From: a virus
Virus record (IMG/VR): IMGVR_UViG_3300017917_001172
Coordinates: 14,531 to 78,530 of that record
Strand: one strand, 5' to 3'
DNA length: 64,000 bases
Positions within the stretch are counted from its first letter, which is position 1. The number at the start of each line of letters is the position of its first letter. A program made the position numbers and the translations under genes. Below the pieces are notes generated by a model. The model had not been told where the DNA came from, searched no databases, and saw only the letters and a program-made list of their open reading frames with translations. Of this stretch, positions 4,957-57,082 are shown one piece after another.

Positions 4957-4978
4957 TGCGATATCCTATTGCTAGGAA

Positions 4979-4985
4979 TATTTAT
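4979..4985 (-). promoter_or_regulatory. T4-type late promoter core (ATAAATA)
   Basis: Matches the core of TATAAATA, 22 nt upstream of the spike gene. Confidence 0.6.
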
Positions 4986-5665: not shown

Positions 5666-5671
5666 CTGGCT

Positions 5672-5701
5672 ATGTTAACATGCTAGATGTGTGATTGTCA
5701 A
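5672..5701 (-). promoter_or_regulatory. Sigma70-type promoter, leaderless
   Basis: TTGACA-18-TAACAT with extended TG; ATG 6 nt downstream. Confidence 0.55.
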
Positions 5702-6045
5702 CCAACTGCTTTGTTTGCTGCCCTAGCTGCCATCTTGGTAACGTCCTGCTGCGTACCTGGCACCTGTATTGGATCTTCTGGCTCAGACGACTTTGCTATG
5801 ATAGCCTTGGCAGGGGATAGATTGCGCAATAGCTTCTTAGCAGCGTCGCTCTTGTTCAGTATGTCTTGGAGCTCGTCATATGTTGCTGGCATGCCTGCGT
5901 TCTTCATGACGTTGAGTATCTGAGCAGTCGGGACTTCCATCTTGGGTTCATCGCTCTTGCTTAGCATGTAATTAAGCAAGGCGACCAGGGTATCACCCTG
6001 GTCTGTGTCCTTGTGGAATGGTGATTCTATCTCACTCAGTCTCAT
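5698..6045 (-). CDS. Hypothetical protein, putative virion/internal head protein
   Basis: Start revised to MRLSEIES (6045), just after the upstream stop. Confidence 0.6.
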   Translation of the reverse strand: MRLSEIESPFHKDTDQGDTLVALLNYMLSKSDEPKMEVPTAQILNVMKNAGMPATYDELQDILNKSDAAKKLLRNLSPAKAIIAKSSEPEDPIQVPGTQQDVTKMAARAANKAVG

Positions 6046-6046
6046 A

Positions 6047-7039
6047 TTAGGCGCGCTTCTCGCGTCCCATTGGTAGCTCACCGCCTGTTGCTGCATCGCT
6101 AGCTGCGAATTCGTCACCAGCGAGATCATCCTCAGCGCCTGGTTCTGCACCTAGATCTGCGTCCATGTCTGCGCCAGCGTCTGGCATTGCTATTGGCGCT
6201 GCTTCTCCGCTGAGACCGCGCACTGCGCTATCCATGCTGGTCCTTGCCTGCTGTACTGATCCAAGCAATGTGTTCAATGTTGACATTGCTGCGCTGCTGA
6301 AGGCATCAGCCTTCTCACCGCCCATGTTGCCACGGATGTTGTCAGTCAGTGGAGGAAGCTGCTCGTTCAGCATCCTTGAAACATCTTCAAGCATGCCCTG
6401 GATGCTGTCAACCATGTCCTTAGCGGCCATCATGCTCTCAGCTTGATTAACTTCGTCCTCAGAAAGCATAGACTCCTTGACAGACTTCTTCTTGAGCTGA
6501 AGCACGCCCTTCTTGTCGCGAGCAACGGTTTCCTTGCCCTTGGTCTTCTTCTCGACTTCCTTCTTGAACCAAGCAGTCATGTCCTTGCTGCCCTTTGGTC
6601 CAGCTTCTTCGACGGCCTCTTCGTCAACATGCTTTGGCAAGCCCTTGTGCTTGGTTCCAGCATACTTCTCGAGCTCCTTGGTGCTCATCTTCATCATTTC
6701 TTTTGAAGCACCCTTTAGGCCCTTCTTTGGAGCATCACCGCGCTTGGCTGCAAGAGCTGCGCCAGCTGCCTGCTGCTGTGCCTTGGAAACTGCTGCTTCT
6801 GCGATGAAACTCTCTAGCACCTTGCGGGCTAGCAGCATGCCAGTGTAGGCCTTGTCATTCTGGCTCTCATGCAACCTATTGCTGCGGCGCACTGAATTAA
6901 GCTTGTTATCAATGCTGGCCATCATTTCCTTAGCTTCGCTCACAGTAAGCCTATCGAGCTGAACGCTCCATCCTAGCTTGGCCTGCATCTTGGCGTTTAA
7001 TTCGCTTGCACTCTTGAGATCTATGTCTGTTAGTTTCAT
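6047..7039 (-). CDS. Putative head scaffold/internal protein with embedded DUF3008-like module
   Basis: Acidic coiled coils; AVSKAQQQAAGAALAAKRG...GTKHKGLPKHV; ATAAATA at 7064-7070. Confidence 0.6.
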   Translation of the reverse strand: MKLTDIDLKSASELNAKMQAKLGWSVQLDRLTVSEAKEMMASIDNKLNSVRRSNRLHESQNDKAYTGMLLARKVLESFIAEAAVSKAQQQAAGAALAAKRGDAPKKGLKGASKEMMKMSTKELEKYAGTKHKGLPKHVDEEAVEEAGPKGSKDMTAWFKKEVEKKTKGKETVARDKKGVLQLKKKSVKESMLSEDEVNQAESMMAAKDMVDSIQGMLEDVSRMLNEQLPPLTDNIRGNMGGEKADAFSSAAMSTLNTLLGSVQQARTSMDSAVRGLSGEAAPIAMPDAGADMDADLGAEPGAEDDLAGDEFAASDAATGGELPMGREKRA

Positions 7040-7069
7040 CTGAGTAATCCTGTTTTATGGAAATATTTA

Positions 7070-7504
7070 TCAAAATCGCTGATATAGGACCACTTGCTGG
7101 GTGCTATCCAATATGTCTATTATCTCGGTATCTGTGCGGCTAAGCCTGTCGGATATTATCTTAGCTCGCAGATCATCGTTCTTGCGTTCAGCTGCCAGCA
7201 TGTGATGATCATATATGTGCTTGTCGATCAACAATCTGCTGAGCTTGTGTTCAGAATTAGCTAGGTAATTCTCTAAACCGTTATCCATGGCTAAGCTAGT
7301 AGCGTAGGCTATGGCCCACGATCTATAGCTAAAGGTCTCTAGCACTTTACCATACCTGCAGACAGCATAATAGCTGCCTTTCTTGATAACGTTGATGTCT
7401 TTGATCTGGAATTTGTGTTTAGTGGCATTGATGACGGGTTCGTTAGGAATCTGCTGGTAGATGAAATCCATTATCTTACCAAGCGATGTCTCGTCTAATC
7501 TCAT
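7070..7504 (-). CDS. Hypothetical protein
   Basis: ORF in a coupled operon; start revised to MRLDET. Confidence 0.6.
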   Translation of the reverse strand: MRLDETSLGKIMDFIYQQIPNEPVINATKHKFQIKDINVIKKGSYYAVCRYGKVLETFSYRSWAIAYATSLAMDNGLENYLANSEHKLSRLLIDKHIYDHHMLAAERKNDDLRAKIISDRLSRTDTEIIDILDSTQQVVLYQRF

Positions 7505-7688
7505 AGCTAGCTTGCCCACTTTTCCTCTTGCGCCTCACTACGTCCTTGCGTATCAATGACTGCAATCGTTTGTAACTCTCGTCATCTAATTTATCAGAGT
7601 TGAAATCTTCCTTTACAAGGTCTTGCAATAAAGCAAATTCCTTGTCATCAATCCAAACCGTAACGCCCTGAGCTATCGTTAGTCTCAT
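7476..7688 (-). CDS. Hypothetical protein
   Basis: ATGA overlap with the upstream gene; start MRLTIAQG. Confidence 0.6.
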   Translation of the reverse strand: MRLTIAQGVTVWIDDKEFALLQDLVKEDFNSDKLDDESYKRLQSLIRKDVVRRKRKSGQASYEIRRDIAW

Positions 7689-7981
7689 CTGTTCGTGATT
7701 ATATACCACAGCAAGCCGCCGCTGAGACCTAACAAGGCTGTGATAGCTGAAGCTGCTATAGTCACTAGGGTGCGAAGCGCAGATGTTTCTTTATTAGTCA
7801 GAGTGTTCTTGATTTCTTCGATGCCATTATCGACCTTATCAAGACGTCTGGTCATGTCACTTTCTAGCTTGTCTATACGATCTGACATGCTCTGTATATC
7901 TTCCTGCAAACCTTTATACCTCTCGGCGCAAAGATCAACGTGCGCTTCTAGGCTCTGTTTCTCTATAGAGAGACTGCTCAT
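7685..7981 (-). CDS. Coiled-coil protein with C-terminal transmembrane helix
   Basis: SLEAHVDLCAERY heptads, hydrophobic C-terminus; AAGGA SD; TAAATA at 8040-8045. Confidence 0.65.
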   Translation of the reverse strand: MSSLSIEKQSLEAHVDLCAERYKGLQEDIQSMSDRIDKLESDMTRRLDKVDNGIEEIKNTLTNKETSALRTLVTIAASAITALLGLSGGLLWYIITNR

Positions 7982-23736: not shown

Positions 23737-24070
23737 CGCCTACTGAATCCCGTTCTATGTCGTTGTGTGAGAACTCTGCCCAGTAGAGCTCAAAGCATAC
23801 ACAATCTTCCTTGCAGACGAACTTGTGTTTCTCACCAGGTGGAACCTTGGTGTATTCGCCAGCCTTGAGAACCGTGACGTCAACTAGATCATAATCGTTC
23901 TTCCAGACATGTATCTCTAACACACCTGATTCCACGAAGAAACCATTCCACTTGTATTTGTGCAGATGCTTGCTGCATTGATAGCCAGCTTTGATCTCTG
24001 CTCTATGGAATTCTAGGACACCGTTAGCTTCCACCAACTCAGTGCTGCCCCATACCTTGCCTTGCCTCAT
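23726..24070 (-). CDS. Cupin-fold protein (sugar isomerase/epimerase-like)
   Basis: KVWG, CSKHLHKYK..FFVESG, VPPGEKHKF. Confidence 0.75.
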   Translation of the reverse strand: MRQGKVWGSTELVEANGVLEFHRAEIKAGYQCSKHLHKYKWNGFFVESGVLEIHVWKNDYDLVDVTVLKAGEYTKVPPGEKHKFVCKEDCVCFELYWAEFSHNDIERDSVGGAT

Positions 24071-24755
24071 ATATCCTCCTTGCTAATTCTAGATCACTTG
24101 GTGTGTTTACTTCACCTTCAATTTGTTGCACCCTCATGGCACCGATGGTTGAACCATACTCTAACCATCTTATTTGTTCCAGATTTTCGATATACTCGAG
24201 AGTGTTTTCGCTGCCTGCCGTCAAGGCAAATACACGCAAGGTCGGGCGCCTGAAAGCATAGACTCCTGCATGTGCGAATCCATGCTTTAACGGCGACCTC
24301 GTGAACCAATGTGCTCGCATGAGATTGCCTTCCACATAGCTGCATATTGCCTTGACAGTGTGCGGGTTCATCTGTTCGCTTTCACTGATGTCGTAAACTA
24401 TCGTGCCAACATCAAAGCCGTGCTCTAAGGGAAGAGTTGATGTCAATATCTGCATGGGATGGATGAATGGCAAGTCGCCTTGACAGTTTATGAATATGTC
24501 CTCATCAAACAAATCCACGACGGATGCTACTCTATCCGTGCCTGTCAGTGCGTCTTCGGTGATCCTAACATCTACATCAGGTAGTGCTTCTTTGAGTTGT
24601 TTGCTGTCAGTGAGCACCGTTACCGGATAACCAGTTGCCGCTGCCTTGTCATAGACATGCCGTATGAGCGGCCTATCGCCTATCATCTCTAGAGGTTTAC
24701 CGGGCAATCTCTTGCTGGACATCCTGGCAGGTATGAGTATTCGCACTTTCTTCAT
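24039..24755 (-). CDS. kdsB: CMP-Kdo synthetase (Kdo cytidylyltransferase)
   Basis: IPARMSSKRLPGKPL, TGTDRV, NCQGDLP, GVYAFR, LEYIENLEQIRWLE, VNTPSDL. Confidence 0.9.
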   Translation of the reverse strand: MKKVRILIPARMSSKRLPGKPLEMIGDRPLIRHVYDKAAATGYPVTVLTDSKQLKEALPDVDVRITEDALTGTDRVASVVDLFDEDIFINCQGDLPFIHPMQILTSTLPLEHGFDVGTIVYDISESEQMNPHTVKAICSYVEGNLMRAHWFTRSPLKHGFAHAGVYAFRRPTLRVFALTAGSENTLEYIENLEQIRWLEYGSTIGAMRVQQIEGEVNTPSDLELARRIYEARQGMGQH

Positions 24756-25501
24756 CTCATGATCCTTGTCAGAGTCGCTCTCAGATCCTTAATGTCTATC
24801 ATGTTAGGGCCATCGCTTGGTGCATTATCTGGATCATCATGCGTTTCCATGAACAAGCCATCAATGCCTATGGCATAAGCGGCTTTAGCGAGTGGTTCCA
24901 CGAACTCCCTCTGTCCTCCAGAACTGGTTCCATTGCCGCCTGGTTGCTGCACGGCATGAGTAGCGTCGAATATGATAGGCTTGCCAAACTGTTTCATGAT
25001 AGGGATACCTCGGAAGTCTACTACCAAGGTGTTATAACCAAAGCTAGTACCACGCTCAGTGAGCCATACATCGTTGTTTGGAATCTTTGCTATCACGTTC
25101 TTCATGTCCCACGGTGCTAGGAACTGTCCCTTCTTGACGTTGACTATGTCTACAGCTTCTCCTGCTGCCTGTAACAGATCTGTCTGCCTGCAAAGGAAGG
25201 CAGGTATCTGCAATACGTCTACAGAAAAAGCTAGCTTCGGACATTGCCAAGTCTCATGCACGTCTGTCAGAGTCTTGACCTTGAAGCCTTCTCTTATTCC
25301 TTGCAGGATGTCTGCGCCCTCTTCTAATCCAACACCGCGGGCACCTCTTGCGCTGGTCCTGTTAGCTTTGTCGTAGCTTGACTTGTAATAAAAGTCTATA
25401 TCACGAAATGGACTGATCGCATCGAGGATCAATTCGCACATCTTGGTAGCATGCTCTCGAGATTCTATCTGGCAGGGGCCTAGTATGAGCTTAAACGTCA
25501 C
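24752..25501 (-). CDS. kdsA: Kdo-8-phosphate synthase
   Basis: GPCQIES, KSSYDKANRTS, QIPAFLCRQTDLL, KKGQFLAP, ERG.SFGY, DATHAVQ.PG, SDG; GTG start with GAGGAGG. Confidence 0.95.
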   Translation of the reverse strand: MTFKLILGPCQIESREHATKMCELILDAISPFRDIDFYYKSSYDKANRTSARGARGVGLEEGADILQGIREGFKVKTLTDVHETWQCPKLAFSVDVLQIPAFLCRQTDLLQAAGEAVDIVNVKKGQFLAPWDMKNVIAKIPNNDVWLTERGTSFGYNTLVVDFRGIPIMKQFGKPIIFDATHAVQQPGGNGTSSGGQREFVEPLAKAAYAIGIDGLFMETHDDPDNAPSDGPNMIDIKDLRATLTRIMR

Positions 25502-26246
25502 GGATGATGTCCTCCTCGATGCAATTGGTTCCAAACTGTATCTCTACTACTTTCACTGGTTGTTCTGTGATGTTGAACAACCTGTGCCACTCGTTTGGTT
25601 TGATCTCTAGCTTGCCGTGCGTTGGTATCATCATCACATGCTCGGGTGTGCCTAGCCCTACGCTAGCAGTGCCGCCGCTCACTAGCCATATCTCTGATCT
25701 ATGTTCGTGCTTTTGCCTGCTGAGGCTCTTGCCGGGATCTACCACTAGCTCCTTGACCTTGACTGTCTGTCCTTCTGAATGTAGCACTCTGTAATAGCCC
25801 CATGGGCGCACGGTCTTAGGTGCCTTCCATTCTTCCAATATCCAGCTGCTGGAGTTTGCCTTGTTCTCTCCACCTATGCCAAACAGGAACTCAACGCCTG
25901 ATTCTGTCATCTCAGGAATGTTTTCAACAGTCCTGTCACCGCCGTTCATGAAACGTATGTGATGGCTAGCAAACATCTCCTTGACTTTCTGTATGGCATT
26001 ACGTGCTGAGCCATCGCTGTCATCAAAGTCTATGACATAGTTGATGCCTTGTATGGCTTGCAAGACAGCCGCACGTTCTGACCATGGCATGAAGGGCCGT
26101 CCCTTCTTGCGAGTTAACCACCCGTCTGAGTTAAGCCCTACTACCAATATGTCACAGTGCCTAGCCGCTGACTTTATGTAATTTATGTGACCGCTGTGTA
26201 TGGGATCAAACCCACCCGTGATCAAACCAATGTCTAATTTTGCCAT
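25491..26246 (-). CDS. HIGH-family nucleotidyltransferase fused to a mannose-6P-isomerase-type cupin
   Basis: GGFDPIHSGH, GLNSD.WL.RKKG, NGGDR, KANSSS; then RPWGYY, LSRQKH.HRSE.W, EEDIIR. Confidence 0.85.
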   Translation of the reverse strand: MAKLDIGLITGGFDPIHSGHINYIKSAARHCDILVVGLNSDGWLTRKKGRPFMPWSERAAVLQAIQGINYVIDFDDSDGSARNAIQKVKEMFASHHIRFMNGGDRTVENIPEMTESGVEFLFGIGGENKANSSSWILEEWKAPKTVRPWGYYRVLHSEGQTVKVKELVVDPGKSLSRQKHEHRSEIWLVSGGTASVGLGTPEHVMMIPTHGKLEIKPNEWHRLFNITEQPVKVVEIQFGTNCIEEDIIRDV

Positions 26247-26292
26247 CTTAGCCTCACATAAATATGACACTATTATATATCAGGAATCAAAA

Positions 26293-26982
26293 ATGAGCAA
26301 ACGAGTTTACATCGGTTGGGATAGCAGGGAAGACATCGCATATCAAGTAGCAAGGCATAGCATATTGAAGCATGCACACGGTGTTGACGTAGTTCCACTA
26401 AAGCTACATGAGCTCAAGGATCAGGGGTTGGTCACAAGACCAGACGATCCCAAAGCCAGCACGCAGTTCACTTTCACTAGATTCCTGGTGCCACATCTAA
26501 ACAAGTATCGAGGATGGGCGTTGTTCGTAGACTGCGATTTTCTCTTCCGAAGCGATGTCAACGAGCTGTTTGATCTAGCAGATCCCAGCAAGGCAGTGAT
26601 GGTAGCCAAGCACGAATATAACGTCGCAGATGGTTCAGCCAAGATGGACGGTAAGGTACAGCATGCCTATCCTAGGAAGAACTGGTCAAGCTGCATCTTG
26701 TTCAACTGCGCACACCCTAAGAACATACAAGGACTAGATCCTCTAGTGATCAACGAAGCGACCATGAGCCACTTGCATCAGTTCCGCTGGCTAGACGACG
26801 AGGATATCGGCGAGATACCTCACACATGGAACTGGCTAGTTGGGCATTATCACGAGCCCAAGGATGGCATTCCAGATGCTGTTCATTACACGCTAGGTGG
26901 GCCTTGGTTTGATGAATACAAGGATGTTGAATACGGACATCTCTGGGACGAAGCCAAGAACGAATATTACAAGAGCTGGTGA
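26293..26982 (+). CDS. Glycosyltransferase (GT8-like)
   Basis: YIGWDSRE, STQFTFTRF, DCD, YPRKNWSS, HYTLGGPW; ATAAATA at 26258. Confidence 0.85.
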   Translation: MSKRVYIGWDSREDIAYQVARHSILKHAHGVDVVPLKLHELKDQGLVTRPDDPKASTQFTFTRFLVPHLNKYRGWALFVDCDFLFRSDVNELFDLADPSKAVMVAKHEYNVADGSAKMDGKVQHAYPRKNWSSCILFNCAHPKNIQGLDPLVINEATMSHLHQFRWLDDEDIGEIPHTWNWLVGHYHEPKDGIPDAVHYTLGGPWFDEYKDVEYGHLWDEAKNEYYKSW

Positions 26983-27776
26983 AGCACTTCCTGCGCTAAG
27001 CCCGATTGCATCTCTGCTTTAGTGAACTGCCTATAGCTGAGAGTGTTGATCCAGCTTTGCCTTTCTGGCATGCGGGGTTTTTCTATGCTGCTCAATTGAT
27101 CTGTAGATATGGTAGAAGTTGCAGACGACGGGTGTGATATCACAGGTATCCCAGCTATCGCTGCTTCTACTCCAACTATGCTAGCCAGGGTAACTACTGC
27201 CCAGCAGTCTTTTAAGTCTTCTGCTACAGATTTGGTTTCTACCATAGGGCCACTGGTGCCATTCTTTCGCGGCTTGTTCCTGATCACGATTGGCCTGTCT
27301 GTGTGTTTCTTGAGCTCTGCTAGGGTCTCGTTCAACCACTGTTTCGCATATCTCCCTGTCACCCAGCTAGTCATGGTATCGCTGCTGGGTGCTATCAATA
27401 TGTGGCTACCTGATTTGCGCCAGTCTCTGAGGCTTAAACCTAAAGATTTTACTCTATCCTCGGGATAATCGTTTGCTCTAGTCTCATGCAATCCGTTTGG
27501 AATCAAGCGCCAATGGCAAGTCTCAGCAGTGTGTTCTCCCATCCATCTGTTAAAATAAGGCATGTCGGCGAACAGCCATGGAATCTTTTGATTCACGCAA
27601 GCTTTGCTTATGTTGAAATTCTCTGGCCTTAATCCCCATATGCAGACTGGCCTAGAATCTGGTTGCCAGTGATTGTATATGGTAGATCCTGCCCACCCCT
27701 GTTGCAAGGGCGTGAGCACCTGCCAGCATTTGCTGGTGGGTTTATTTTTAGGTCCTATGATGTTTAAGCCAGCCAT
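26967..27776 (-). CDS. KpsS/KpsC (capsule synthesis)-like GT-B protein
   Basis: PIVIRNKP..CWAVVTLASIVGVEAAIAGIPV; paralogue of 31308 and 33605. Confidence 0.6.
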   Translation of the reverse strand: MAGLNIIGPKNKPTSKCWQVLTPLQQGWAGSTIYNHWQPDSRPVCIWGLRPENFNISKACVNQKIPWLFADMPYFNRWMGEHTAETCHWRLIPNGLHETRANDYPEDRVKSLGLSLRDWRKSGSHILIAPSSDTMTSWVTGRYAKQWLNETLAELKKHTDRPIVIRNKPRKNGTSGPMVETKSVAEDLKDCWAVVTLASIVGVEAAIAGIPVISHPSSATSTISTDQLSSIEKPRMPERQSWINTLSYRQFTKAEMQSGLAQEVLHQLL

Positions 27777-27788
27777 TATGTATGTAGT

Positions 27789-27796
27789 TATAAATA
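27789..27796 (+). promoter_or_regulatory. T4 late promoter TATAAATA driving the 27802-32135 operon
   Basis: Exact consensus 5 nt before ATG 27802. Confidence 0.75.
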
Positions 27797-27801
27797 GCTG
27801 C

Positions 27802-28632
27802 ATGATACCTTATCTCTTTGTAACCACATTTAACAAGAACGGTTACCAGCTGTACGGGCAGAAGATGCTGGAATCTTTCCTGAACTTCTGGCCTGCTAAT
27901 CTAAAGATGATGGTTTACATCGAAAATTTTGCTATCGATAAAGATCTAGCGAACAACCTTCGGATATTGACTAGAGATCTCAATGCCGTGCAAGATCTAA
28001 CCATATTCAAGAACCGACACAAGAACAACCAAAAAGCACACGGCTTTTGGCCAGAAGGTAGGACAGCTAAAGAATTCCAGTTTGATGCAGTGAGATTTAG
28101 CCACAAGGTATTTTCCTTGTATGATTGCTTTAAGAATCCTCCGCTAGAATACAAGAGCATGATATGGCTAGATGGCGATACCATAACGTTCAGGCCGGTT
28201 CCTGACAACTTCTTAGAAACAGTTGCACCTAGGAATTTCTGGAACAGCGGTGTAGGAAAACAGAAATATGGTATATCTTATCTCGGCAGATCGAGGCAGC
28301 ATAGTGAATGCGGGTTCATGAGTTTCAACAAGACGCATCCGCTCATGCCTGCGTTTTGGGAGATGTTTGCTGACATGTATCGCACTGATCAGATCTTTGA
28401 TCTAGCAGAGTGGCACGATAGCTTCGTGTTCGATCACGTGAGGAAGATCTTTGAAGCAAAGGGCATGATAAATCTCAATCTCACTCCTAAGATAGCTTCT
28501 GGTCATCCATTCATAAACTGTGATCTTGGATTATACATGGATCACATGAAGGGAGCTAGGAAACGCAACGGTCGTAGCAGAAAGACTGAGCGACACATGA
28601 AAACCGACCAAGATCCAGATTGGTGGAAATAA
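27802..28632 (+). CDS. Glycosyltransferase (GT-A fold)
   Basis: VTTF, DAVRFSHKV, WLDGD, SECGF, EWHDSFVFD, HMKG. Confidence 0.8.
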   Translation: MIPYLFVTTFNKNGYQLYGQKMLESFLNFWPANLKMMVYIENFAIDKDLANNLRILTRDLNAVQDLTIFKNRHKNNQKAHGFWPEGRTAKEFQFDAVRFSHKVFSLYDCFKNPPLEYKSMIWLDGDTITFRPVPDNFLETVAPRNFWNSGVGKQKYGISYLGRSRQHSECGFMSFNKTHPLMPAFWEMFADMYRTDQIFDLAEWHDSFVFDHVRKIFEAKGMINLNLTPKIASGHPFINCDLGLYMDHMKGARKRNGRSRKTERHMKTDQDPDWWK

Positions 28633-28633
28633 C

Positions 28634-29299
28634 ATGATCAGTCTATTATGTCCTACTAGAGGTAGACCCGATCGCGCTGTTCAATTCTTGGACAGCGTGC
28701 TTTCAACACAGACCAACGATAACGAGATCATCTTTGGTCTACAGACAGATGATCCCAAGCTCAACGACTATCCAAAAGAGATAACATCCAGAGCGATGTT
28801 CTTTGAACCTAGTTCAACTGTCTATTACTGGAATGCCATGGCATCTATGGCTACAGGGCATCTGTTGACTCTCATAGCAGATGATGTCATCATGCGCACA
28901 CCTGGATGGGACAATAAATTTGAAACCGCTGCTGCTCAATATCCAGATGGCATATGCTTGATAACCACGCAAGATGGACGCAATCCTGGAGAGCCACCAG
29001 ATCAGCTACCTACACCTCATCCTACCATCACCCGCAGATGGTATGAGACACTAGGCTACTTCACCTTTCCTGGATTGTTCCACTACTATGCAGACACTTG
29101 GAATTCTAGCATCGCTAGGAGACTGGGCAGGCAGATCAATCTTTACGATGTCATGTGGGAACACATCAAGGAGTTTGATGATACTCGCAAGGAGATGCGC
29201 CGTAACAAGTGGGCTGAACTCGACGACATGGTCTTCAAGCAGTGTGTTAGGCACTGGGAAACTGATCTAGAGCTTCTCAGAGACAAGATAGAAAGATAA
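28634..29299 (+). CDS. Glycosyltransferase family 2-like
   Basis: ISLLCPTRGRP, WN, IADD, YADTW. Confidence 0.8.
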   Translation: MISLLCPTRGRPDRAVQFLDSVLSTQTNDNEIIFGLQTDDPKLNDYPKEITSRAMFFEPSSTVYYWNAMASMATGHLLTLIADDVIMRTPGWDNKFETAAAQYPDGICLITTQDGRNPGEPPDQLPTPHPTITRRWYETLGYFTFPGLFHYYADTWNSSIARRLGRQINLYDVMWEHIKEFDDTRKEMRRNKWAELDDMVFKQCVRHWETDLELLRDKIER

Positions 29300-29301
29300 G
29301 C

Positions 29302-30024
29302 ATGCTTACAGTCATAATGCCAGCTGCCGGAAAAGGCACGCGACTAAACCTTCCATATCCCAAGGAGATCTTGCGCCTCGACAAGGAGCAAGCGTTGATC
29401 GACTATAGCTTTGACTTCTTCCGTGACTATGGCAGGAGAGACGTTGAGTTCGTGGTAGTGATCAACGAAGACAAGACCGAGATAGTAAGATATCTCAGCA
29501 AGTACAAGGACAAGTTCAACATCAGCTTTACCTTCCAGAATCCTAACGAGCGCGAGTACACTGGTGCCATCAAGAGCGCCAAGCATCTGTTCGGTGAGCA
29601 CAATGTGGTATTGCTACCTGATACCATCATGACCTTAAAGCCAGGTGTTGACCTAGTAGAAGCTGTGCAAGATTCTGTTACCGAGACTGGCTTCACTTTC
29701 CTCTACAAGCGAGAGTCAGAAGACAAGATGCTACGCACCAAAGGCGCACTATTGATCGATGAGAACGGGCTAGTCAAGAGCTACGAAGACAAACCCGAGG
29801 AAAATGTGAGTACCTATAATGCCTTCTGGTGCAGCTTTGCTTTCCGCAAGAGAGCTTTTGATCCTGCTATTGCTTTCATGGAGAAGAGCACGCTCAGGCA
29901 GCGTGTGTTGCCTAACGAGATAGAATCTACTCCAATATACAGCAGCAAGGGCATAGAAGTCCTAGACTACAAGGATCTAGGCACCTGGGATGAGATCAGG
30001 AGACTGTTGCGTGACACTATCTAA
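29302..30024 (+). CDS. Sugar-1-phosphate nucleotidyltransferase (NTP_transferase)
   Basis: IMPAAGKGTRL..PYPKEI, LLPD, EDKP, YKDLGTW. Confidence 0.85.
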   Translation: MLTVIMPAAGKGTRLNLPYPKEILRLDKEQALIDYSFDFFRDYGRRDVEFVVVINEDKTEIVRYLSKYKDKFNISFTFQNPNEREYTGAIKSAKHLFGEHNVVLLPDTIMTLKPGVDLVEAVQDSVTETGFTFLYKRESEDKMLRTKGALLIDENGLVKSYEDKPEENVSTYNAFWCSFAFRKRAFDPAIAFMEKSTLRQRVLPNEIESTPIYSSKGIEVLDYKDLGTWDEIRRLLRDTI

Positions 30025-30607
30025 GGTCATAGTGACAGACTGCGATGGTGTGCTGCTTGATTGGGAGTTTGCCTTTGACGTCTGGGTAGCCGAGAAAGGT
30101 TACAAGAGGCTGCCTGGTACCGAGCAGATATTCTGGGCAGGCAGCAGATATGGCATACACAATGATGATGTCTTGAAGCTCATATATGAGTTCAACGAAT
30201 CGGCCTGCATAGGCTTTCTTCCTGCGCTGCGAGATGCTCAGCACTATGTCAAGGCACTAGCCGACCAAGGTTATGAGTTTGATTTAGTATCAAGCCTGCA
30301 TGTTGACCGTTATGCACAGATGTTGCGCATCAATAACCTGACGCACATATTTGGTGATGTGTTCCGCAAGATCAATGCGCATCTCAGCATCACAGGTAGC
30401 AAGGAAGATTTCCTGCGAGAGCATTACGAATCTAGCAACTGTTGGTGGATAGAAGATAGGACTGACCACGTGGATGCTGGTATCAGAGTAGGCATGCGCG
30501 GGCTATTGATGGATCATCCGTACAACCAAGATTACGTAGGCAAAGCCACTAGAGTCAAGAACTGGCAAGAGATATATGAGATAGTAACAGGAAATGATTT
30601 TACATGA
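30011..30607 (+). CDS. HAD-family 5'(3')-nucleotidase-like phosphatase
   Basis: DCDGVLLDW, VSS, K, WIED, HPYN. Confidence 0.8.
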   Translation: MTLSKVIVTDCDGVLLDWEFAFDVWVAEKGYKRLPGTEQIFWAGSRYGIHNDDVLKLIYEFNESACIGFLPALRDAQHYVKALADQGYEFDLVSSLHVDRYAQMLRINNLTHIFGDVFRKINAHLSITGSKEDFLREHYESSNCWWIEDRTDHVDAGIRVGMRGLLMDHPYNQDYVGKATRVKNWQEIYEIVTGNDFT

Positions 30608-31311
30608 GCACACCGCATCTAGAAGCTAACCTAGGAGATTATGCCGAGACAGTGTTGCTGCCTGGTGATCCCCTGAGGGCGCAATGGGTAGCAGAAACTT
30701 ATTTCAAGGACATCAAGTGTGTTAACAAAGTACGAAACATGCTTGGCTTCACTGGGCTTTACAATGGCAAGAAGATCAGCGTGCAAGGTTCTGGCATGGG
30801 ACAACCTAGCCTAGGCATATACGTGAACGAGCTATACGATCGTTATAGAGTCAAGAACATCATAAGAATTGGTAGCTGCGGTGCTATCGATCAGGCTCTA
30901 ACAGTAGGCAGCATAGTAGCTGCCATGACAGCTTGCACAGATTCAGGGTTGCCTACTAGCATAGCACAAGGTTGGCATTATAGCCCAGCAGCTAGCTATC
31001 ATCTATTAGAGAACTATGTCAAGCAGCACAGGATGAGAGGTTTGCCTATAACAGTAGGCAGCATAGCAAGCACAGATAACTTCTATCAACCAAATTCGCT
31101 CTGGTGGAGGCCCTTGGCCGATCACGGCGTGATAGCAGTAGAGATGGAAACATACATGCTGTACACGCTAGCACACAGGCATAAGCGTCATGCACTTTCA
31201 ATCAACACAGTCAGCGACAATGTTGTAACCAAGCAGCAGATGAGTAGCAATCAGAGGCAGACTGGACTAGACAACATGGTGACTTTCCTGCTAGACAGCT
31301 TAGTGCTATGA
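30604..31311 (+). CDS. deoD: Purine nucleoside phosphorylase
   Basis: TPH, LLPGDPLRA, VRNMLGFTG, GMGQPS, RIGSCGA, VEME, TVSD. Confidence 0.93.
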   Translation: MSTPHLEANLGDYAETVLLPGDPLRAQWVAETYFKDIKCVNKVRNMLGFTGLYNGKKISVQGSGMGQPSLGIYVNELYDRYRVKNIIRIGSCGAIDQALTVGSIVAAMTACTDSGLPTSIAQGWHYSPAASYHLLENYVKQHRMRGLPITVGSIASTDNFYQPNSLWWRPLADHGVIAVEMETYMLYTLAHRHKRHALSINTVSDNVVTKQQMSSNQRQTGLDNMVTFLLDSLVL

Positions 31312-32135
31312 GAGTCGTAGGGTACGAGACCAAGAAAGCGCACACTACTGAGATAGTGAAAGCTGCATTGCGCCCGTACAATGGCCAATTGCTGCCTATC
31401 GAAGATTTCTTAGACAACGGATTACCTGCGGTTGACCTAGTGATAATATCAGGCATACTCAGAGGCAGCGGGCTAGTCTACAAGGAATGCCTGCGCCAGA
31501 ACAAGGACTTCTTGTTCATCGACCATGCCTACTTCCTCAAGGGCTATGAGGGCGTGAACTGGATGCGTGTTACTAAGAACCGCCATGCATTTGGACCTAA
31601 TCTGATCAACAAGCCCAATGATAGATTCAAGCAATTCTTCGAGCACAAGTATGCGCTAGACTCGTGGAAAGGCAATAGGCAAGGGCATGTGCTTGTCTTG
31701 CCTCCGACCAATGCCATATCTTGGTTGTTTAATGCACATGACTGGGAAAAGAACATCGTTGATAGATTGAAGCAAGTGACTGATAGACCAATCAAGATCA
31801 GAGCAAAGCCAGAAGATCCCATCGTTGACGATCGAGGAAATCTCATGCGCATGCAGATCAACGATACCAAAGACATACCTCTGGCAGAAGATATCGCAAG
31901 AGCGCATGCTGTGGTAGCATACAATAGCAATAGCGTGATCGAAGCAGTGAAGCAAGGTGTGCCTGTCATATGTGAAGATCCTTGTGCTGCTAGCCCTATA
32001 TCATTCAAGCTAGAGGATCTATCACAGCCAGATAAGTTCATGTCAGAGCCGCCAAGGCAGCAGCTATTCAACGATCTAGCTTATTCACAGTTTACCAGAG
32101 CAGAGCTAAAGATCATCAATCTATCAAGTGCGTGA
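31308..32135 (+). CDS. KpsS/KpsC-like GT-B protein
   Basis: IDHAYF, PIKIRAKP, AVVAYNSNSVIEAVKQGVPV, LAYSQFT. Confidence 0.6.
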   Translation: MRVVGYETKKAHTTEIVKAALRPYNGQLLPIEDFLDNGLPAVDLVIISGILRGSGLVYKECLRQNKDFLFIDHAYFLKGYEGVNWMRVTKNRHAFGPNLINKPNDRFKQFFEHKYALDSWKGNRQGHVLVLPPTNAISWLFNAHDWEKNIVDRLKQVTDRPIKIRAKPEDPIVDDRGNLMRMQINDTKDIPLAEDIARAHAVVAYNSNSVIEAVKQGVPVICEDPCAASPISFKLEDLSQPDKFMSEPPRQQLFNDLAYSQFTRAELKIINLSSA

Positions 32136-33604: not shown

Positions 33605-34471
33605 ATGAAGATTAGCACTTGGGAAAGCTGCCTGCCTGGAAACGCCACTAACGTCTATTCAAAGATATTAGCAGCGATGAAATCAACCAACGATGAACTG
33701 CTGTATCAGAAGCTAGAAGGCGATGCTGGTTTCATCTGGTCAGTCTTATGGTGGGGGCGGATGAGCAGAGCTAAGCCAGTCTGGCAGCACTATCGTTCCA
33801 ATAACAAGCCAGTCATAGTAGCCGAGGTTGGCGGCTTAGTCAGAGACAAGACTTGGCGACTCAGTGCTAACGGGATCAACCGATCAGCTATGTTTCCCAA
33901 GGTTAATCTAGATCCTAACCGTCCTAGCAAGTTAGGACTGAGCTTGCAGCCATGGCATGATGGCAAGTATGTCTTGATATGCGGTCAGCATGAAAGGAGC
34001 GAGCAGTGGCGCAACATGCCCAGCATGGATGATTACTATAAGCAGACCGTGCTAGATGTTCGCAAGCATACCGATCGGCCTATCATCATACGTAGCCATC
34101 CTAGGTACAGAGAAAACTTGTTCTTCAAGATCGATGCTGAGTTTTATTCTAAGCACAACGTGGAATGGAACGCACCTAAGCATATAAAGAACACCAAGGA
34201 TAGCTACGATCTCGAATCATTGCTGCCAGAATGCCACTGCGTGATCAGCCATAGTTCAAACTCAGGACTGAGTGCAATCATGGCTGGCACACCTGCTATC
34301 GTCAGCAAGGAAAGCTTGGCTTACGACATGGCCACAGATGACATATCTAAGATAGAATCTCTACCTAGGCCAGATCGATCTCAGTGGTTGATAGAGCTAG
34401 CCCACAAGGAATGGTATGAAGATGAGCTAGCTTATGCTTGGCAGCACCTAAGGCCTATGATATTACCTTGA
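33605..34471 (+). CDS. KpsS/KpsC-like GT-B protein
   Basis: VLICGQ, PIIIRSHP, CVISHSSNSGLSAIMAGTP. Confidence 0.6.
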   Translation: MKISTWESCLPGNATNVYSKILAAMKSTNDELLYQKLEGDAGFIWSVLWWGRMSRAKPVWQHYRSNNKPVIVAEVGGLVRDKTWRLSANGINRSAMFPKVNLDPNRPSKLGLSLQPWHDGKYVLICGQHERSEQWRNMPSMDDYYKQTVLDVRKHTDRPIIIRSHPRYRENLFFKIDAEFYSKHNVEWNAPKHIKNTKDSYDLESLLPECHCVISHSSNSGLSAIMAGTPAIVSKESLAYDMATDDISKIESLPRPDRSQWLIELAHKEWYEDELAYAWQHLRPMILP

Positions 34472-37445: not shown

Positions 37446-38504
37446 TTATTCCTCTTCCTTGATTTCTGCAATCTCTACAGGAACCTCAGAAGCCTTGGAC
37501 TCATCCCACTCATCCATGATGATCTTGAGCTTGTCTTCAGTCCATTGCTTGCGGAACTCCTTGATGACTTCGCCATCCTTGGTAGTGTAAGCGAGCTTGT
37601 TGCCATCCTTCTTGATCACGCCCTTGGCTTCGAACAGCTCAAGCAAGCCTGATGTTGGGCTCATGCCTGTGTCATAAGGAATCTTTACCTGTACTGATTC
37701 AAATGGCTTGGCATAGCGTGTCTTCATGACCTTGCAAGCTGCACGGATACCACGCACCTCGGAGATCTTGTTGCCATCCTCATCTTCCTTGAGCTTGAGC
37801 TTGCGCATAGCTACCACGATAGATGAGGCATAGATGAAGCCTTGGCCGCCTGAGATCTTGTCGTCTGGATCAAACATGTCTTGGCTTGCATAGGTATGGT
37901 TAGTAGCAACCAGACCAACGTTCATGCTGCCAAACATGTTGACGCAGTTACGAACAAGCGCAGTAAGAGCCTTGGGCTTACGTCCCATGTCACCCTTCAT
38001 GTCACCAGCTTCGAACTGATTGACGTCTGTGGGCGTGAGCAGCATACCTAGCGAGTCAAGCACGAACAGGACTTTGGGACGCTCATCAGCTGCCATGGTC
38101 TTGTAATCCTTCATGAAGGTGCTAATCATCTTAGCAACGTCATCAATCATGGCCATGTTCAGCTTGAGCAGCTTGCTCTCGTCTGTGTCAACGCCAAGTG
38201 CTTTGAGCCAATCCTCGTCGAGAGCGTTCTCAGTATCGATCAGCACGACAAAAATGCCTTGCTGCTGGGCATGCCTCACGATGTTACCAGAGCAGATGTA
38301 GCTCTTGCCTGCACCTGATTCACCAGCGAACACAGTGACCTTGCCCATGGGAATGCCCTTATGGAAGTCACCGCTGATGAGATAGTTCAGCGTGTAGTTG
38401 CCTGTGCTTACCCAGTCAGTAGGATCATTGAATCCGATGCTGAGTCCGTCAATGCTCTTGGTTAGATCCTTGCGGAATTTTGATAAGTCAAATGGTTTAG
38501 CCAT
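37446..38504 (-). CDS. uvsX: RecA-family recombinase UvsX
   Basis: AGESGAGKS, DTENA, LDSLG, TNHTY, SGG, KTR. Confidence 0.93.
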   Translation of the reverse strand: MAKPFDLSKFRKDLTKSIDGLSIGFNDPTDWVSTGNYTLNYLISGDFHKGIPMGKVTVFAGESGAGKSYICSGNIVRHAQQQGIFVVLIDTENALDEDWLKALGVDTDESKLLKLNMAMIDDVAKMISTFMKDYKTMAADERPKVLFVLDSLGMLLTPTDVNQFEAGDMKGDMGRKPKALTALVRNCVNMFGSMNVGLVATNHTYASQDMFDPDDKISGGQGFIYASSIVVAMRKLKLKEDEDGNKISEVRGIRAACKVMKTRYAKPFESVQVKIPYDTGMSPTSGLLELFEAKGVIKKDGNKLAYTTKDGEVIKEFRKQWTEDKLKIIMDEWDESKASEVPVEIAEIKEEE

Positions 38505-39666
38505 GTTGTTGCCTTTCTGTCAATTCATAAAAAGTCTTAAAGATTTGCCTACTGTCTAATCCTCGGCGTGTGTCGAGGTCAGATATATATCTCTTGGTCG
38601 CAGCAAGATCAGATTCAAATGGTTGCTTGATGTGATCCAACAACACCTTGTATCCGTCCTCTAATAGGTAACCGTGCTTCATTGCTATTCGTTCTCTTAG
38701 TAGGCTTTCTAAAGATAATAGCGTGTCTTGCGGCAAATTCCTAATATCCAGTTGGACAGGTCCTTTTATTGCACCTAACGCAAACGAATTCGCTGCAAAT
38801 CCTTGTGACATGAAGTAGTCAATGGTATCAAACAACGAGGTATGATTGAGCACGAACCAAAGCATGTTAAAAGTTATCTTGTGCGGTAGCTGTCTGATGG
38901 TCTGTAGATTATTCAGCAAGTCCTGCCACACGCCGCCATATCGTATGTACTCAAACTCTTTGCCCATGGTTTCTACGCTAACTGTCCAATGCACGTTAGG
39001 AAAAGAACAGATGAGACGGAAGATGCCCGTGCTAGTGTTGCTTAGATTAGTATTGACCCTGAGCTCAACTTCTGGATTGCATTCCTTCAGCTTTGACAGC
39101 AGTTGTTCGTTCTCTGTCATCAGCATAGGTTCGCCGCCTGCTAGATAGATGTTCTTGAGCTTGTGTGCATTGTCCATGACATAAGACTTCATCCGCTCAT
39201 AACGTTCAGCAGGAGGCTTTTCAATGTTGAGTCCTAGCTCTCTTTCCCACTTGCTACTCCATTCTGGTCCACAGTAGATGCATGCAAAATTGCAGGTGTT
39301 TTGCCATCTTAGATCTACGTGGCTAAGATCAAAGTTGTCGATGCTATCGTATGTGCCGAGCGGTACTGACTTGAGTTGTTTTAAGTAGTACAGCCTGCTA
39401 CTCATTATGCCCTGAATGCTTTTCTTGCCCGCTTCTAGAGAATGGCAACCTTTACAACCAGAAGGATATTCATTGTTTAACATAGCACGTCTTATCTTGC
39501 AGTTAGTTTCACTGCCAAGGACGTTTTCTATCGGCGCGTCTTTGATGTTACCTAAGGTTTCTGTAGACTGTGTACAGTTCTTTACCGTGCCATCAATTTG
39601 ATAATAGAACCCAGTCCACGGCAATGGACAAAAGCTACCATTGGTTAGATAACCTTTAGGATCCAT
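38497..39666 (-). CDS. Radical SAM protein with N-terminal twitch/SPASM-like domain
   Basis: FCPLPW..C..CKGC; CNFACIYC; GGEP; NTN. Confidence 0.88.
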   Translation of the reverse strand: MDPKGYLTNGSFCPLPWTGFYYQIDGTVKNCTQSTETLGNIKDAPIENVLGSETNCKIRRAMLNNEYPSGCKGCHSLEAGKKSIQGIMSSRLYYLKQLKSVPLGTYDSIDNFDLSHVDLRWQNTCNFACIYCGPEWSSKWERELGLNIEKPPAERYERMKSYVMDNAHKLKNIYLAGGEPMLMTENEQLLSKLKECNPEVELRVNTNLSNTSTGIFRLICSFPNVHWTVSVETMGKEFEYIRYGGVWQDLLNNLQTIRQLPHKITFNMLWFVLNHTSLFDTIDYFMSQGFAANSFALGAIKGPVQLDIRNLPQDTLLSLESLLRERIAMKHGYLLEDGYKVLLDHIKQPFESDLAATKRYISDLDTRRGLDSRQIFKTFYELTERQQHG

Positions 39667-40210
39667 TTTTATTTGGTCCTAGTGAGATTTCAGGTATCTT
39701 GAAATCGCTTCCGCATATATCCATCAGCGTTAGCAGAGTCTTGGCCCAATCATCAGCATCTGCTGCATTCTCTACGGTCATTCCGTTTCCGGTAGCTACT
39801 GACCCTGGGCGCACTAGCATCATCTTTGGTCCATTTTCATGTTCATGATATAGTTGCCTGTGTGCTTCTTCCAACGCTAATTTCTGCACCCTGTATTGAT
39901 TCATGCCTATGCCTGGCATCGAAGCTACAGGACTGTTAGTCATCATGGTTGATATGTTCATTATGAACTTGTTAGGTTCATCTTTCCATTGTTCATATAC
40001 TGCATACAGCAGCTCAGTCTGGGAGAATCCAGCCTGTGCATTGTTGATGAACCAATCACATTCTGCAATGGGACCTACGATCTTATGGAGGCTCTTGATG
40101 TTATAACCGTTTCGCCTGCTGAGACCAACTATCTCGTGACCTCTGTTAGCTAGCTGATTAGCTAAAGCCAGGCCGATACCAGAACTATGACCAGTGATAG
40201 CAATTTTCAT
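39656..40210 (-). CDS. Short-chain dehydrogenase/reductase
   Basis: ITGHSSGIG, NNA, YRVQK. Confidence 0.85.
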   Translation of the reverse strand: MKIAITGHSSGIGLALANQLANRGHEIVGLSRRNGYNIKSLHKIVGPIAECDWFINNAQAGFSQTELLYAVYEQWKDEPNKFIMNISTMMTNSPVASMPGIGMNQYRVQKLALEEAHRQLYHEHENGPKMMLVRPGSVATGNGMTVENAADADDWAKTLLTLMDICGSDFKIPEISLGPNKNGS

Positions 40211-41168
40211 AATTGGTTCCTCTAAGTTTATCTTGTTCTTTAATGTAGTTTAGCAATTCATCAGAGTTATCAGGTCCTACTGCCACATCTTGTACGTGTG
40301 CAGCTTGCCTAGTCAGAGGGTTGCTATAATAAACATCTAGAGCAGAAGGATGTTTCAATCTTCCCATGCTGACAGGTATGCCAACCTGCTCGCTATACTG
40401 TCTTATCTCATCTAGATTACCTACGGTATAAGCAGATACAGTAGTCCAGAAATCTAGAGACAATTGGCTATCTTTCTCGCTAATCTCCTTGTAACGCATG
40501 ACCGTCTCGTTAAAGACTGGCCAGCGCAAGGGCCATCTCGCATATTCATAGATCTTGTCAGTGCCATCCAAGCTCATGGTTATTATGACCTTGATGCCTT
40601 TGGCAAGGATCTTAGGCAAAGGCTTGATGAACTTGCTAGCGTTTGTGTTAACCCTGACTATCTTAACATTGCTGGGCAAATCATCTAGCAGTGCTAGATA
40701 ATTAGGACTGTTAGATGGTTCGCCCCCGTTGATATCGAGTTCAATGATCCTGTCCTGCGGCAAGGATTTAAAAGCATCAACGTTGTTGACTATCTTATAA
40801 TCAGGCCCACTTAGGCTACCAATCTTAGTGCTTAGGTTAGCACTACAAAACTGGCAAGCTGCGTTGCAGATGTTATCTAATATACCACCTACTATTAAGT
40901 AGTCAGGCCTAACGTGCTTCAATATCTTATCGCGTTGTATAGCATGTTGCCTTATGCTAGTTTGTCCTAGGCTTTCTTCTTGTTGGCATCTAACGCATTC
41001 TTTTGGCCAAGTGCTATTGTTGAAATGATCCTTGATGGATAAAAGAGCTGAGTTGCCTTCGAGGTCCTCTAAGGTTTGTGCTGTTGGGCCATTCATCATG
41101 TGTCCGCAAACACCTATCTTGCCGTCTGGCATTATGCGCCTGAAATGATTTAACCTAGGGCAAAACAT
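40185..41168 (-). CDS. Radical SAM protein
   Basis: FCPR..C..CVRC; CNAACQFC; GGEP; SLDG. Confidence 0.88.
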   Translation of the reverse strand: MFCPRLNHFRRIMPDGKIGVCGHMMNGPTAQTLEDLEGNSALLSIKDHFNNSTWPKECVRCQQEESLGQTSIRQHAIQRDKILKHVRPDYLIVGGILDNICNAACQFCSANLSTKIGSLSGPDYKIVNNVDAFKSLPQDRIIELDINGGEPSNSPNYLALLDDLPSNVKIVRVNTNASKFIKPLPKILAKGIKVIITMSLDGTDKIYEYARWPLRWPVFNETVMRYKEISEKDSQLSLDFWTTVSAYTVGNLDEIRQYSEQVGIPVSMGRLKHPSALDVYYSNPLTRQAAHVQDVAVGPDNSDELLNYIKEQDKLRGTNYENCYHWS

Positions 41169-57064: not shown

Positions 57065-57082
57065 CGTACATTATTTATAGCC

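Follow-up and report, generated by a model that had tools for sequence, protein, structure and literature searches.

A recurrent phage gene cassette that may route purine nucleotides toward a nucleotide-activated pentofuranose

Why would a phage carry a purine nucleoside phosphorylase (PNP) in the middle of a set of genes for glycan synthesis? The question is raised by 64 kb (hereafter, the window) of a 78.5-kb IMG/VR virus sequence (IMGVR_UViG_3300017917_001172; CheckV completeness, about 22%). Here, genes for a sugar-phosphate nucleotidyltransferase (NTP), an NT5C-like HAD phosphatase (HAD), and a DeoD-type PNP (DeoD) follow one another inside a glycan island that spans 23 to 36 kb of the window by family search. 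The original prediction read these three genes and the glycosyltransferase-like gene before them in reverse, as a chain leading from nucleotides to a nucleoside diphosphate (NDP)-pentose donor. On balance, we judge that NTP, HAD, and DeoD probably form a three-enzyme feeder module that would convert purine (deoxy)nucleotides into a nucleotide-activated pentofuranose, a reading built on homology and gene linkage. The wider proposal, that the purine nucleotides come from the breakdown of host nucleic acids and that the resulting NDP-(deoxy)ribofuranose would be a Leloir-type donor for a phage-directed glycan, is one that we hold tentatively, at slightly short of an even chance.

Integrity, linkage, and inheritance of the cassette

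The NTP, HAD, and DeoD genes of the window are intact and translationally coupled. All four open reading frames (ORFs) of the original prediction were confirmed in position and lie on the plus strand, in a compact unit of about 27802 to 32135 (Table 1), and the tight coupling claimed for them holds, with junctions of +2 to −35 nt. A 1-nt gap precedes the glycosyltransferase-like gene and a 2-nt gap separates it from NTP, NTP and HAD overlap by up to 35 nt (the true start of HAD may lie a few codons further downstream), and overlaps of 4 nt join HAD to DeoD and DeoD to the last gene of the unit.

One scan of IMG/VR was seeded with NTP (33 loci) and one with DeoD (80 loci); once duplicates were merged, 109 distinct loci were compared. 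NTP, HAD, and DeoD occurred together and in the same gene order in 72 of these, and the cassette genes overlap in every full triad. The other loci carried NTP and HAD (3 loci), NTP alone (5 loci), HAD alone (17 loci), or DeoD alone (1 locus) or were truncated (the remainder). Among the DeoD-seeded loci, the order NTP, HAD, DeoD was found in 76 of 80, and in 74 of the 75 that had enough upstream DNA. This linkage is far beyond chance, and the original prediction, which would have been undermined by a deoD gene not linked to its partners elsewhere, gained support from viral contigs in which DeoD is almost always found with NTP and HAD. The three proteins diverge in step, with correlated pairwise distances (Mantel r, 0.75 to 0.79; p, 0.001) at identities down to 41 to 52%, and flanking genes differ widely between loci while the cassette persists; the cassette has been conserved and passed on as one unit. 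Across the NTP tree, it is the triad that is widespread. We also considered NTP and HAD beside phoH, as found in one complete phage genome (G001), as the ancestral state, and this was ruled out by the nesting of dyads among triads on the same tree.

DeoD is the cassette member whose function is most secure by homology. It exceeds the curated NCBI equivalog/subfamily cut-offs of both NF004489 (285.5 bits versus 230) and TIGR00107 (256.7 bits versus 232.25), shares 45% identity with a solved Bacillus PNP, and retains the residues that contact phosphate, ribose, and base, which we take to be, in Escherichia coli PNP numbering, His4, Gly20, Arg24, Arg43, Arg87, Ser90, Phe159, Met180, Glu181, Asp204, and Arg217. 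None of its catalytic positions varies among 12 phage copies. Homology thus securely predicts a canonical, catalytically complete hexameric-type PNP that yields (deoxy)ribose-1-phosphate and a purine base. Searches of cultured phages with the region (megablast) and with NTP (tblastn) gave no match, and the DeoD matches in the cultured-phage collection (GenBank) proved to be bacterial contigs or contaminants and not phage genes.

The HAD protein is assigned from its family and its fold. It scores 28.4 bits against PF06941 (NT5C; cut-off, 24.8) and matches phrog_420 at 5e-28, all four HAD motifs (DxDGV, S/T, K, and ED) are invariant, and its AlphaFold model (pLDDT, 87.6) finds its best matches by TM score and root mean square deviation in the deoxyribonucleotidases 3bwv and 1q92 (TM, 0.67 to 0.71; deviation, 3.5 to 3.7). 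NT5C-type enzymes are 5′(3′)-nucleotidases, and a (deoxy)nucleoside monophosphate nucleotidase is a plausible reading of both sequence and model. A role as the phosphomannomutase of a phosphomannose isomerase, phosphomannomutase, and GDP-mannose pyrophosphorylase (PMI/PMM/GMP) set was considered but judged less likely: the fold lies closer to nucleotidases than to mutases, and the HAD family is also found in phages that lack glycan genes. The cassette HAD belongs to the T4 gp30.2-like family (phrog_420), with 25 to 39% identity to members in DLP_6, phiM12, Phosso, PA5oct, Atu_ph07, and T4-like coliphages. In contrast to the cassette copies, those of cultured phages stand alone, with no adjoining NTP or DeoD, and often lie two genes from phoH, as in DLP_6 and Phosso. 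A distance of about 1.5 to 2 kb between HAD and phoH was seen in G001 (L029:8710-10451), in a stand-alone IMG/VR HAD locus, and in DLP_6 and Phosso (L029, L122, L123, and L197, in our numbering of loci), which suggests that this proximity is an old T4-like synteny of the gp30.2-like family.

Relatives of the nucleotidyltransferase and the proposed route

NTP is the most conserved of the three cassette proteins (mean pairwise identity, 67%). It scores 38.5 bits against PF00483 (cut-off, 21.2), with an invariant GxGTRL loop and DKP motif, and its AlphaFold model (pLDDT, 88) is nearest in fold to GalU (Z, 19.4) and small RmlA (Z, 19.0), with Z scores of about 17 to LicC, PntC, and HddC (HddC, 16.9). 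The NTP profile found only 433 relatives among 1.84 billion representatives, and the only match of NTP in a sequence search of PDB was the N-terminus of IspD (the same searches with profiles of HAD, the glycosyltransferase-like protein, and the paralogues described below were uninformative). By its sequence relationships, NTP represents a small divergent family, separate from the mainstream hexose-1-phosphate enzymes.

The cellular relatives of this family point to a particular chemistry. In the biosynthesis of the antibiotic A-90289, LipP phosphorolytically removes uracil from 5′-amino-5′-deoxyuridine, LipM joins the resulting ribosyl-1-phosphate to a nucleoside triphosphate, and LipN transfers the aminoribose (PMC4902027), while LipL is an Fe/2-oxoglutarate UMP dioxygenase, LipK a transaldolase resembling serine hydroxymethyltransferase (SHMT), and LipO a transaminase (PMC4902027; PMC6384614). 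The phage NTP profile finds actinobacterial proteins at E values of 1e-25 to 1e-33, and phage NTP and the actinobacterial Lip-cluster members align along their whole length (hhalign probability, 100%; E, 4.6e-38; 30% identity; 238 columns); one actinobacterial member is 31.8% identical to the window NTP over 242 amino acids. Two metagenome loci (L213 and L215) place an NTP relative with a class-III aminotransferase, a weakly matching GT-B protein, a TauD dioxygenase, an SHMT-like protein that matches fluorothreonine transaldolase best in NCBIfam, and a trimeric-type PNP (NF006054; 231 bits versus a cut-off of 218), a gene content that corresponds at the sequence level to the LipK-P domain set. 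The HAD of L213 shares only superfamily membership with the phage HAD. Three locus tags separate the NTP homologue from an SHMT-like gene in Streptomyces sp. NPDC002817 and S. uncialis, and the two genes occur on one contig in four further genomes or contigs. A scan of genome contigs with a single NTP protein returned one truncated Streptosporangiaceae locus, and among 401 Actinomycetes genomes surveyed the NTP family was present in that Streptosporangiaceae genome only. The actinobacterial phosphorylase is unlike phage DeoD by BLASTP, which means that the partnership between this NTP family and a nucleoside phosphorylase arose independently at least two times.

A third arrangement, bacterial in appearance, is indicated by the gene content of L226 (7977-9918; 734-kb contig Ga0209127_100011) and L221 (1420-3310), where a distant NTP-like gene overlaps DeoD. 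The NTP-like protein has 406 to 414 amino acids, with an NTP-like N-terminal half (hhalign probability, 89%) and an unassigned C-terminal half, and the accompanying DeoD is 42 to 48% identical to that of the window. In L226, the pair sits in an amino-sugar cluster, among PglD-like acetyltransferases, a DegT aminotransferase, and a Rieske oxygenase.

Family membership and three independent gene associations lead us to propose that phage NTP is a pentose-1-phosphate nucleotidyltransferase, LipM-like by its homology to Lip-cluster members. Glycan genes that recur around the cassette also speak for a link to glycan synthesis: Kdo genes, a GT8-like gene, and carbamoyl-, methyl-, and sulfotransferases in the window, and GT11, Gmd-like, Fcl-like, or epimerase genes in L061, L050, L073, and L046. 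In the resulting route, HAD would remove the 5′-phosphate of a nucleoside or deoxynucleoside monophosphate, DeoD would phosphorolyze the nucleoside to alpha-D-(deoxy)ribose-1-phosphate, the LipM-like nucleotidyltransferase would combine this sugar-1-phosphate with a nucleoside triphosphate to give NDP-(deoxy)ribofuranose, and glycosyltransferases of the island, for example the GT-A-like protein encoded directly before NTP, would use the donor. Homology makes the DeoD step secure, fold and family make the HAD step plausible, and the glycosyltransferase step is the weakest; within this route, we infer the substrate of NTP, the nucleoside triphosphate that it uses, the choice between ribose and deoxyribose, the substrate of HAD, and the glycosyltransferase with its acceptor.

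The proposed user of the donor had been named a GT2 enzyme. That it is a glycosyltransferase agrees with phrog_14945 and with its matches to ESM-Atlas viral clusters that bear the name GT2; PF00535 is present in 24% of the members of one such cluster. The GT2 family itself is another matter: the protein has no Pfam match at E values of ≤0.01, which places it outside PF00535, and no sequence match in PDB. Its P(T/S)RGRP and DD/DE motifs are conserved, and it is best named GT-A-like, a probable glycosyltransferase and candidate user of an NDP-pentose. Homologues directly follow DeoD in 10 loci and directly precede NTP in the window and in L002 and L003.

The original prediction presented the route as undescribed, a claim that gives way before the biochemical precedent of LipP, LipM, and LipN. 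The Lip branch (A-90289, caprazamycin, and muraymycin; PMC4902027) follows the same logic, from a nucleotide through phosphorylase-derived ribofuranosyl-1-phosphate and an NDP-pentose to transfer by a glycosyltransferase, and the chemistry is not categorically new because of this precedent in antibiotic biosynthesis, the one setting in which it has so far been demonstrated. What appears to set the phage system apart is the enzymes and their setting: a hexameric DeoD-type purine enzyme in contrast to the trimeric-type PNP of the actinobacterial cluster, entry through a hydrolytic HAD nucleotidase in the place of LipL, a GT-A-like instead of a GT-B-like glycosyltransferase, and phage glycan islands instead of a secondary-metabolite cluster. 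With neither a dioxygenase nor an aminotransferase in the phage loci, the sugar is probably (deoxy)ribose in unmodified form and not 5-amino-5-deoxyribose. In the literature that we searched, we found nothing on a phage PNP as an auxiliary gene, on UDP-ribose or ribose-1-phosphate pyrophosphorylases, or on such a cassette.

Three other known systems share parts of the scheme. Systems that use a phosphoribosyl pyrophosphate (PRPP)-dependent glycan phosphoribosyltransferase (gPRT) with a HAD phosphatase, or polyprenyl-phosphoribose, likewise bring pentofuranose into surface glycans with the help of a HAD-family phosphatase (PMC11127046, PMC12096443); they differ in their PRPP or lipid-linked donor, in having no nucleoside phosphorylase or nucleotidyltransferase, and in placing the phosphatase after transfer. 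Bacterial deo-type catabolism, with a 5′-nucleotidase and DeoD, takes nucleoside monophosphates to nucleoside and then to base and ribose-1-phosphate as HAD and DeoD would, but there ribose-1-phosphate passes through phosphopentomutase to central metabolism, whereas the phage loci have no mutase, a coupled nucleotidyltransferase, and a position in glycan islands. In the GmhB and HddC pair of GDP-heptose synthesis, a small NTP_transferase enzyme again has a HAD phosphatase as its partner, which prepares the sugar-1-phosphate; GmhB, however, is a capless HAD of another subfamily, in contrast to the NT5C-like phage HAD, and the phage has no SIS isomerase or kinase.

If the proposal is correct, this would be the first nucleotide-pentofuranose of such origin in glycan assembly and a Leloir-type route, the third after those from PRPP and lipid-linked pentose and one related by descent to the LipM enzymes of antibiotic synthesis. 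The aminoribosylation logic described as "unique" for MraY-targeting antibiotics would then have a widespread relative in environmental phages. It would also tie phage nucleotide scavenging directly to glycan synthesis, for the virion coat or for remodeling of the host surface, and would supply small conserved enzymes for one-pot chemoenzymatic synthesis of NDP-pentoses.

Points against the route and competing explanations

Several observations weigh against the proposed route, beginning with the wide distribution of HAD. Its family occurs in 201 cultured phage records without NTP or DeoD, as a T4 gp30.2-like protein (the Ac42 annotation is gene 30.2), and the copies of 17 stand-alone viral HAD loci are 43 to 47% identical to the window HAD, as similar as cassette copies are. 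Given how widespread stand-alone HAD is, and that each cassette genome checked holds a single copy, HAD may serve general nucleotide metabolism; its distribution suggests that it is probably a general phage nucleotidase used by the cassette and not one invented for it. DeoD, for its part, was lost at least two times on the NTP tree, including in the closest relatives of the window (L002 and L003), one clade of that tree carries NTP alone, and G001, a complete 230-kb phage genome with NTP and HAD, has no PNP_UDP_1 gene anywhere. The sole DeoD without NTP or HAD (L094; IMG/VR 3300027833_001604, 3998-7819) lies beside frd and thyA, a setting that by gene content belongs to nucleotide metabolism and not to glycan synthesis. 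Read from translations, the neighbors of this DeoD are dihydrofolate-reductase-like, thymidylate-synthase-like, methyltransferase-like, and CxxxCxxC radical-SAM-type ORFs. Moreover, most triads share one ancestor, and the triad count therefore overstates the independent evidence. Identity of about 30% to Lip-cluster members can leave room for a different substrate specificity; LipM is said, in work of Chi et al. from 2011, to require a 5-amino group, and neither an aminotransferase nor a dioxygenase occurs in the phage loci. The GT-A-like family adjoins the cassette in 12 of about 80 NTP-bearing loci. Finally, every case that we found in the literature searched traces the ribofuranose of bacterial glycans to PRPP or polyprenyl-phosphoribose and not to NDP-ribose (PMC11127046, PMC12096443). 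Even so, the reverse chain of four genes remains the best explanation of the locus, with a weak link to the glycosyltransferase and with an uncertain place for HAD as a dedicated first step.

The genes might instead merely travel together, NTP activating an ordinary host sugar-1-phosphate (for example, mannose-1-phosphate, to give GDP-mannose for the Gmd, Fcl, and GT11 fucose genes that adjoin NTP in one clade), HAD and DeoD acting as salvage auxiliaries, and the overlaps descending from one ancestral arrangement. We regard this as unlikely, if still deserving of some weight. Glycan neighbors do recur: a GT11 fucosyltransferase lies beside the cassette, directly upstream of NTP, in L050 and L073 (by Pfam) and in L061 (by eye), where Gmd-like and Fcl-like ORFs are also present, a Pfam-confirmed GDP-mannose-dehydratase-like epimerase occurs in L046, and a cytidylyltransferase/mannose-6-phosphate-isomerase-cupin fusion often adjoins the cassette. 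The independence of the HAD family from NTP in many phages, the lone DeoD beside frd and thyA, the genomes with NTP only or with NTP and HAD, and the nearness of the NTP fold to GalU and RmlA all suit such co-travel as well. It fits poorly with the tiny size of the NTP family and its separation from mainstream hexose-1-phosphate enzymes, with cellular NTP relatives in Lip-type clusters that hold a phosphorylase, and with the distant NTP-like gene that again shares an operon with DeoD in L226 and L221. Nor does it account well for a viral DeoD that is almost never found outside the cassette, or for a cassette that stays intact though all of its neighbors change.

Two further accounts dispense with DeoD as a supplier of sugar. 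HAD and DeoD could clear inhibitory adenosine-type by-products of the tailoring enzymes of the island, namely 5′-deoxyadenosine from radical SAM enzymes, 3′-phosphoadenosine 5′-phosphate (PAP) or AMP from sulfotransferases, and nucleoside mono- and diphosphates from glycosyltransferases, an idea that we find quite improbable. It draws on radical SAM genes (a radical SAM/SPASM gene between HAD and DeoD in L046, a radical SAM/SPASM domain fused to an NTP homologue in P0194, further genes within 8 kb in L006, L015, L020, L033, L072, and L094, and, in the window itself, at 38497-41168), on the sulfo- and methyltransferase domains of the window, and on the established 5′(3′)-nucleotidase activity of the NT5C type. 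Against this, only about 8 of more than 100 loci have a radical SAM gene close to the cassette, the window sulfotransferase has no homologue in the other loci, and NTP, the most conserved and constant partner, would go unexplained; DeoD also keeps His4 and Met64-type contacts, which from the residue roles in E. coli PNP we take to be typical of PNPs that prefer an unmodified 5′-OH. Still less probable is a PRPP route in which HAD would trim ribofuranose-5-phosphate after transfer, a neighboring gene would encode a gPRT, and NTP would serve another sugar. Known ribofuranose transferases do combine a gPRT and a phosphatase of the HAD family (PMC11127046, PMC12096443), by analogy HAD could act on a ribofuranoside 5-phosphate, and several neighboring genes lack a family assignment. 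No gPRT-like protein turned up, however (no gPRT reference model was applied), the nearest folds to HAD are deoxyribonucleotidases, the HAD family also occurs in phages without any glycan genes, and neither DeoD nor NTP would have a role.

The phage and the surroundings of the cassette

The window encodes a ribonucleotide reductase, DnaB-like and UvsW-like helicases, a large terminase, a RecA/UvsX-type recombinase, and a tail sheath of 1075 amino acids, and its terminase shares 49 to 54% identity with the terminases of PA5oct, Phosso, and Atu_ph07, all jumbo myophages. From its terminase and its replication and structural gene content, the source is therefore a large, uncultured, distantly T4-like phage.

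Table 1. Features of the plus-strand unit and its surroundings (positions in the window)
Feature	Position	Strand	Basis or remark
KdsA-/KdsB-like ORFs	24039-25534		translations read by eye
Cytidylyltransferase-like (PF01467) and mannose-6-phosphate-isomerase cupin (PF01050) fusion	25491-26270	-	family search
Paralogue of the last gene of the unit	26967-27803	-	
TATAAATA, T4-late-promoter-like motif	27789-27796	+	5 nt upstream of ATG at 27802
First gene of the unit, DxD-containing GT-A-like protein	27802-28632	+	no Pfam family
Probable GT-A-type glycosyltransferase, first named GT2	28634-29299	+	phrog_14945 at 6e-28
NTP, sugar-phosphate nucleotidyltransferase	29302-30024	+	PF00483
HAD, NT5C-like phosphatase	29990-30607	+	PF06941; phrog_420
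DeoD, purine nucleoside phosphorylase	30604-31311	+	NF004489, TIGR00107
Last gene of the unit, possibly GT-B-like	31308-32135	+	two paralogues nearby
Methyltransferase-sulfotransferase fusion, 510 amino acids	32116-33648	-	class I methyltransferase and Sulfotransfer_1 domains; family search
Paralogue of the last gene of the unit	33605-34471	+	
Radical SAM protein	38497-41168	-	SPASM-type cluster N-terminal to the radical SAM core
TATAAATA, further copy	57072-57079	-	

The unit had been described as a late operon. This description comes down to the one copy of TATAAATA before the first gene, a weak hint of late expression: the motif has 3 matches in the window versus 1.3 expected, a number also reached in 10 of 100 shuffles. 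Two of the three window copies (those in Table 1) end 5 to 7 nt before a start codon; if they were late promoters, almost no space would remain for a leader or a ribosome-binding site. The listed ORF of the first gene begins at 27673, upstream of its likely start, and homologues of its product (25 to 60% identity) lie near the cassette in many loci. The last gene of the unit and its two paralogues encode proteins of about 280 amino acids with no Pfam match; a sequence search of PDB gave weak matches to GT-B C-terminal domains (E, 0.04), and a likeness to KpsS/KpsC was not confirmed.

Family searches also place a GT8-like gene and a carbamoyltransferase in the glycan island. Homologues of the PF01467-PF01050 fusion often lie immediately upstream of NTP in other loci, and the 510-amino-acid methyltransferase-sulfotransferase has no homologue among the related cassette loci compared.

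Radical SAM genes appear at several points around the NTP family. In L046 (2895-4004; IMG/VR 3300044220_003092), the radical SAM/SPASM gene interrupts the cassette between HAD and DeoD, and P0194, a 566-amino-acid metagenomic protein, carries its radical SAM/SPASM domain N-terminal to an NTP-family domain; these arrangements hint that some NTP-family members may work with a radical SAM enzyme. In the NTP-only locus L033 (462-3007), the genes after NTP are, as read from translations, a ThyX-like ORF, a small cupin, and a 508-amino-acid radical-SAM-like ORF, and a short PNP_UDP_1 protein (54.5 bits) that looks like a methylthioadenosine/S-adenosylhomocysteine (MTA/SAH) nucleosidase lies about 8 kb from this NTP (L041:1438-1995, IMG/VR 3300036716_000469). 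The radical SAM gene of the window is followed by a short-chain dehydrogenase/reductase (SDR) of reduced length and a second, weak radical SAM match, and this group lies between the recombinase and the remaining replication module.

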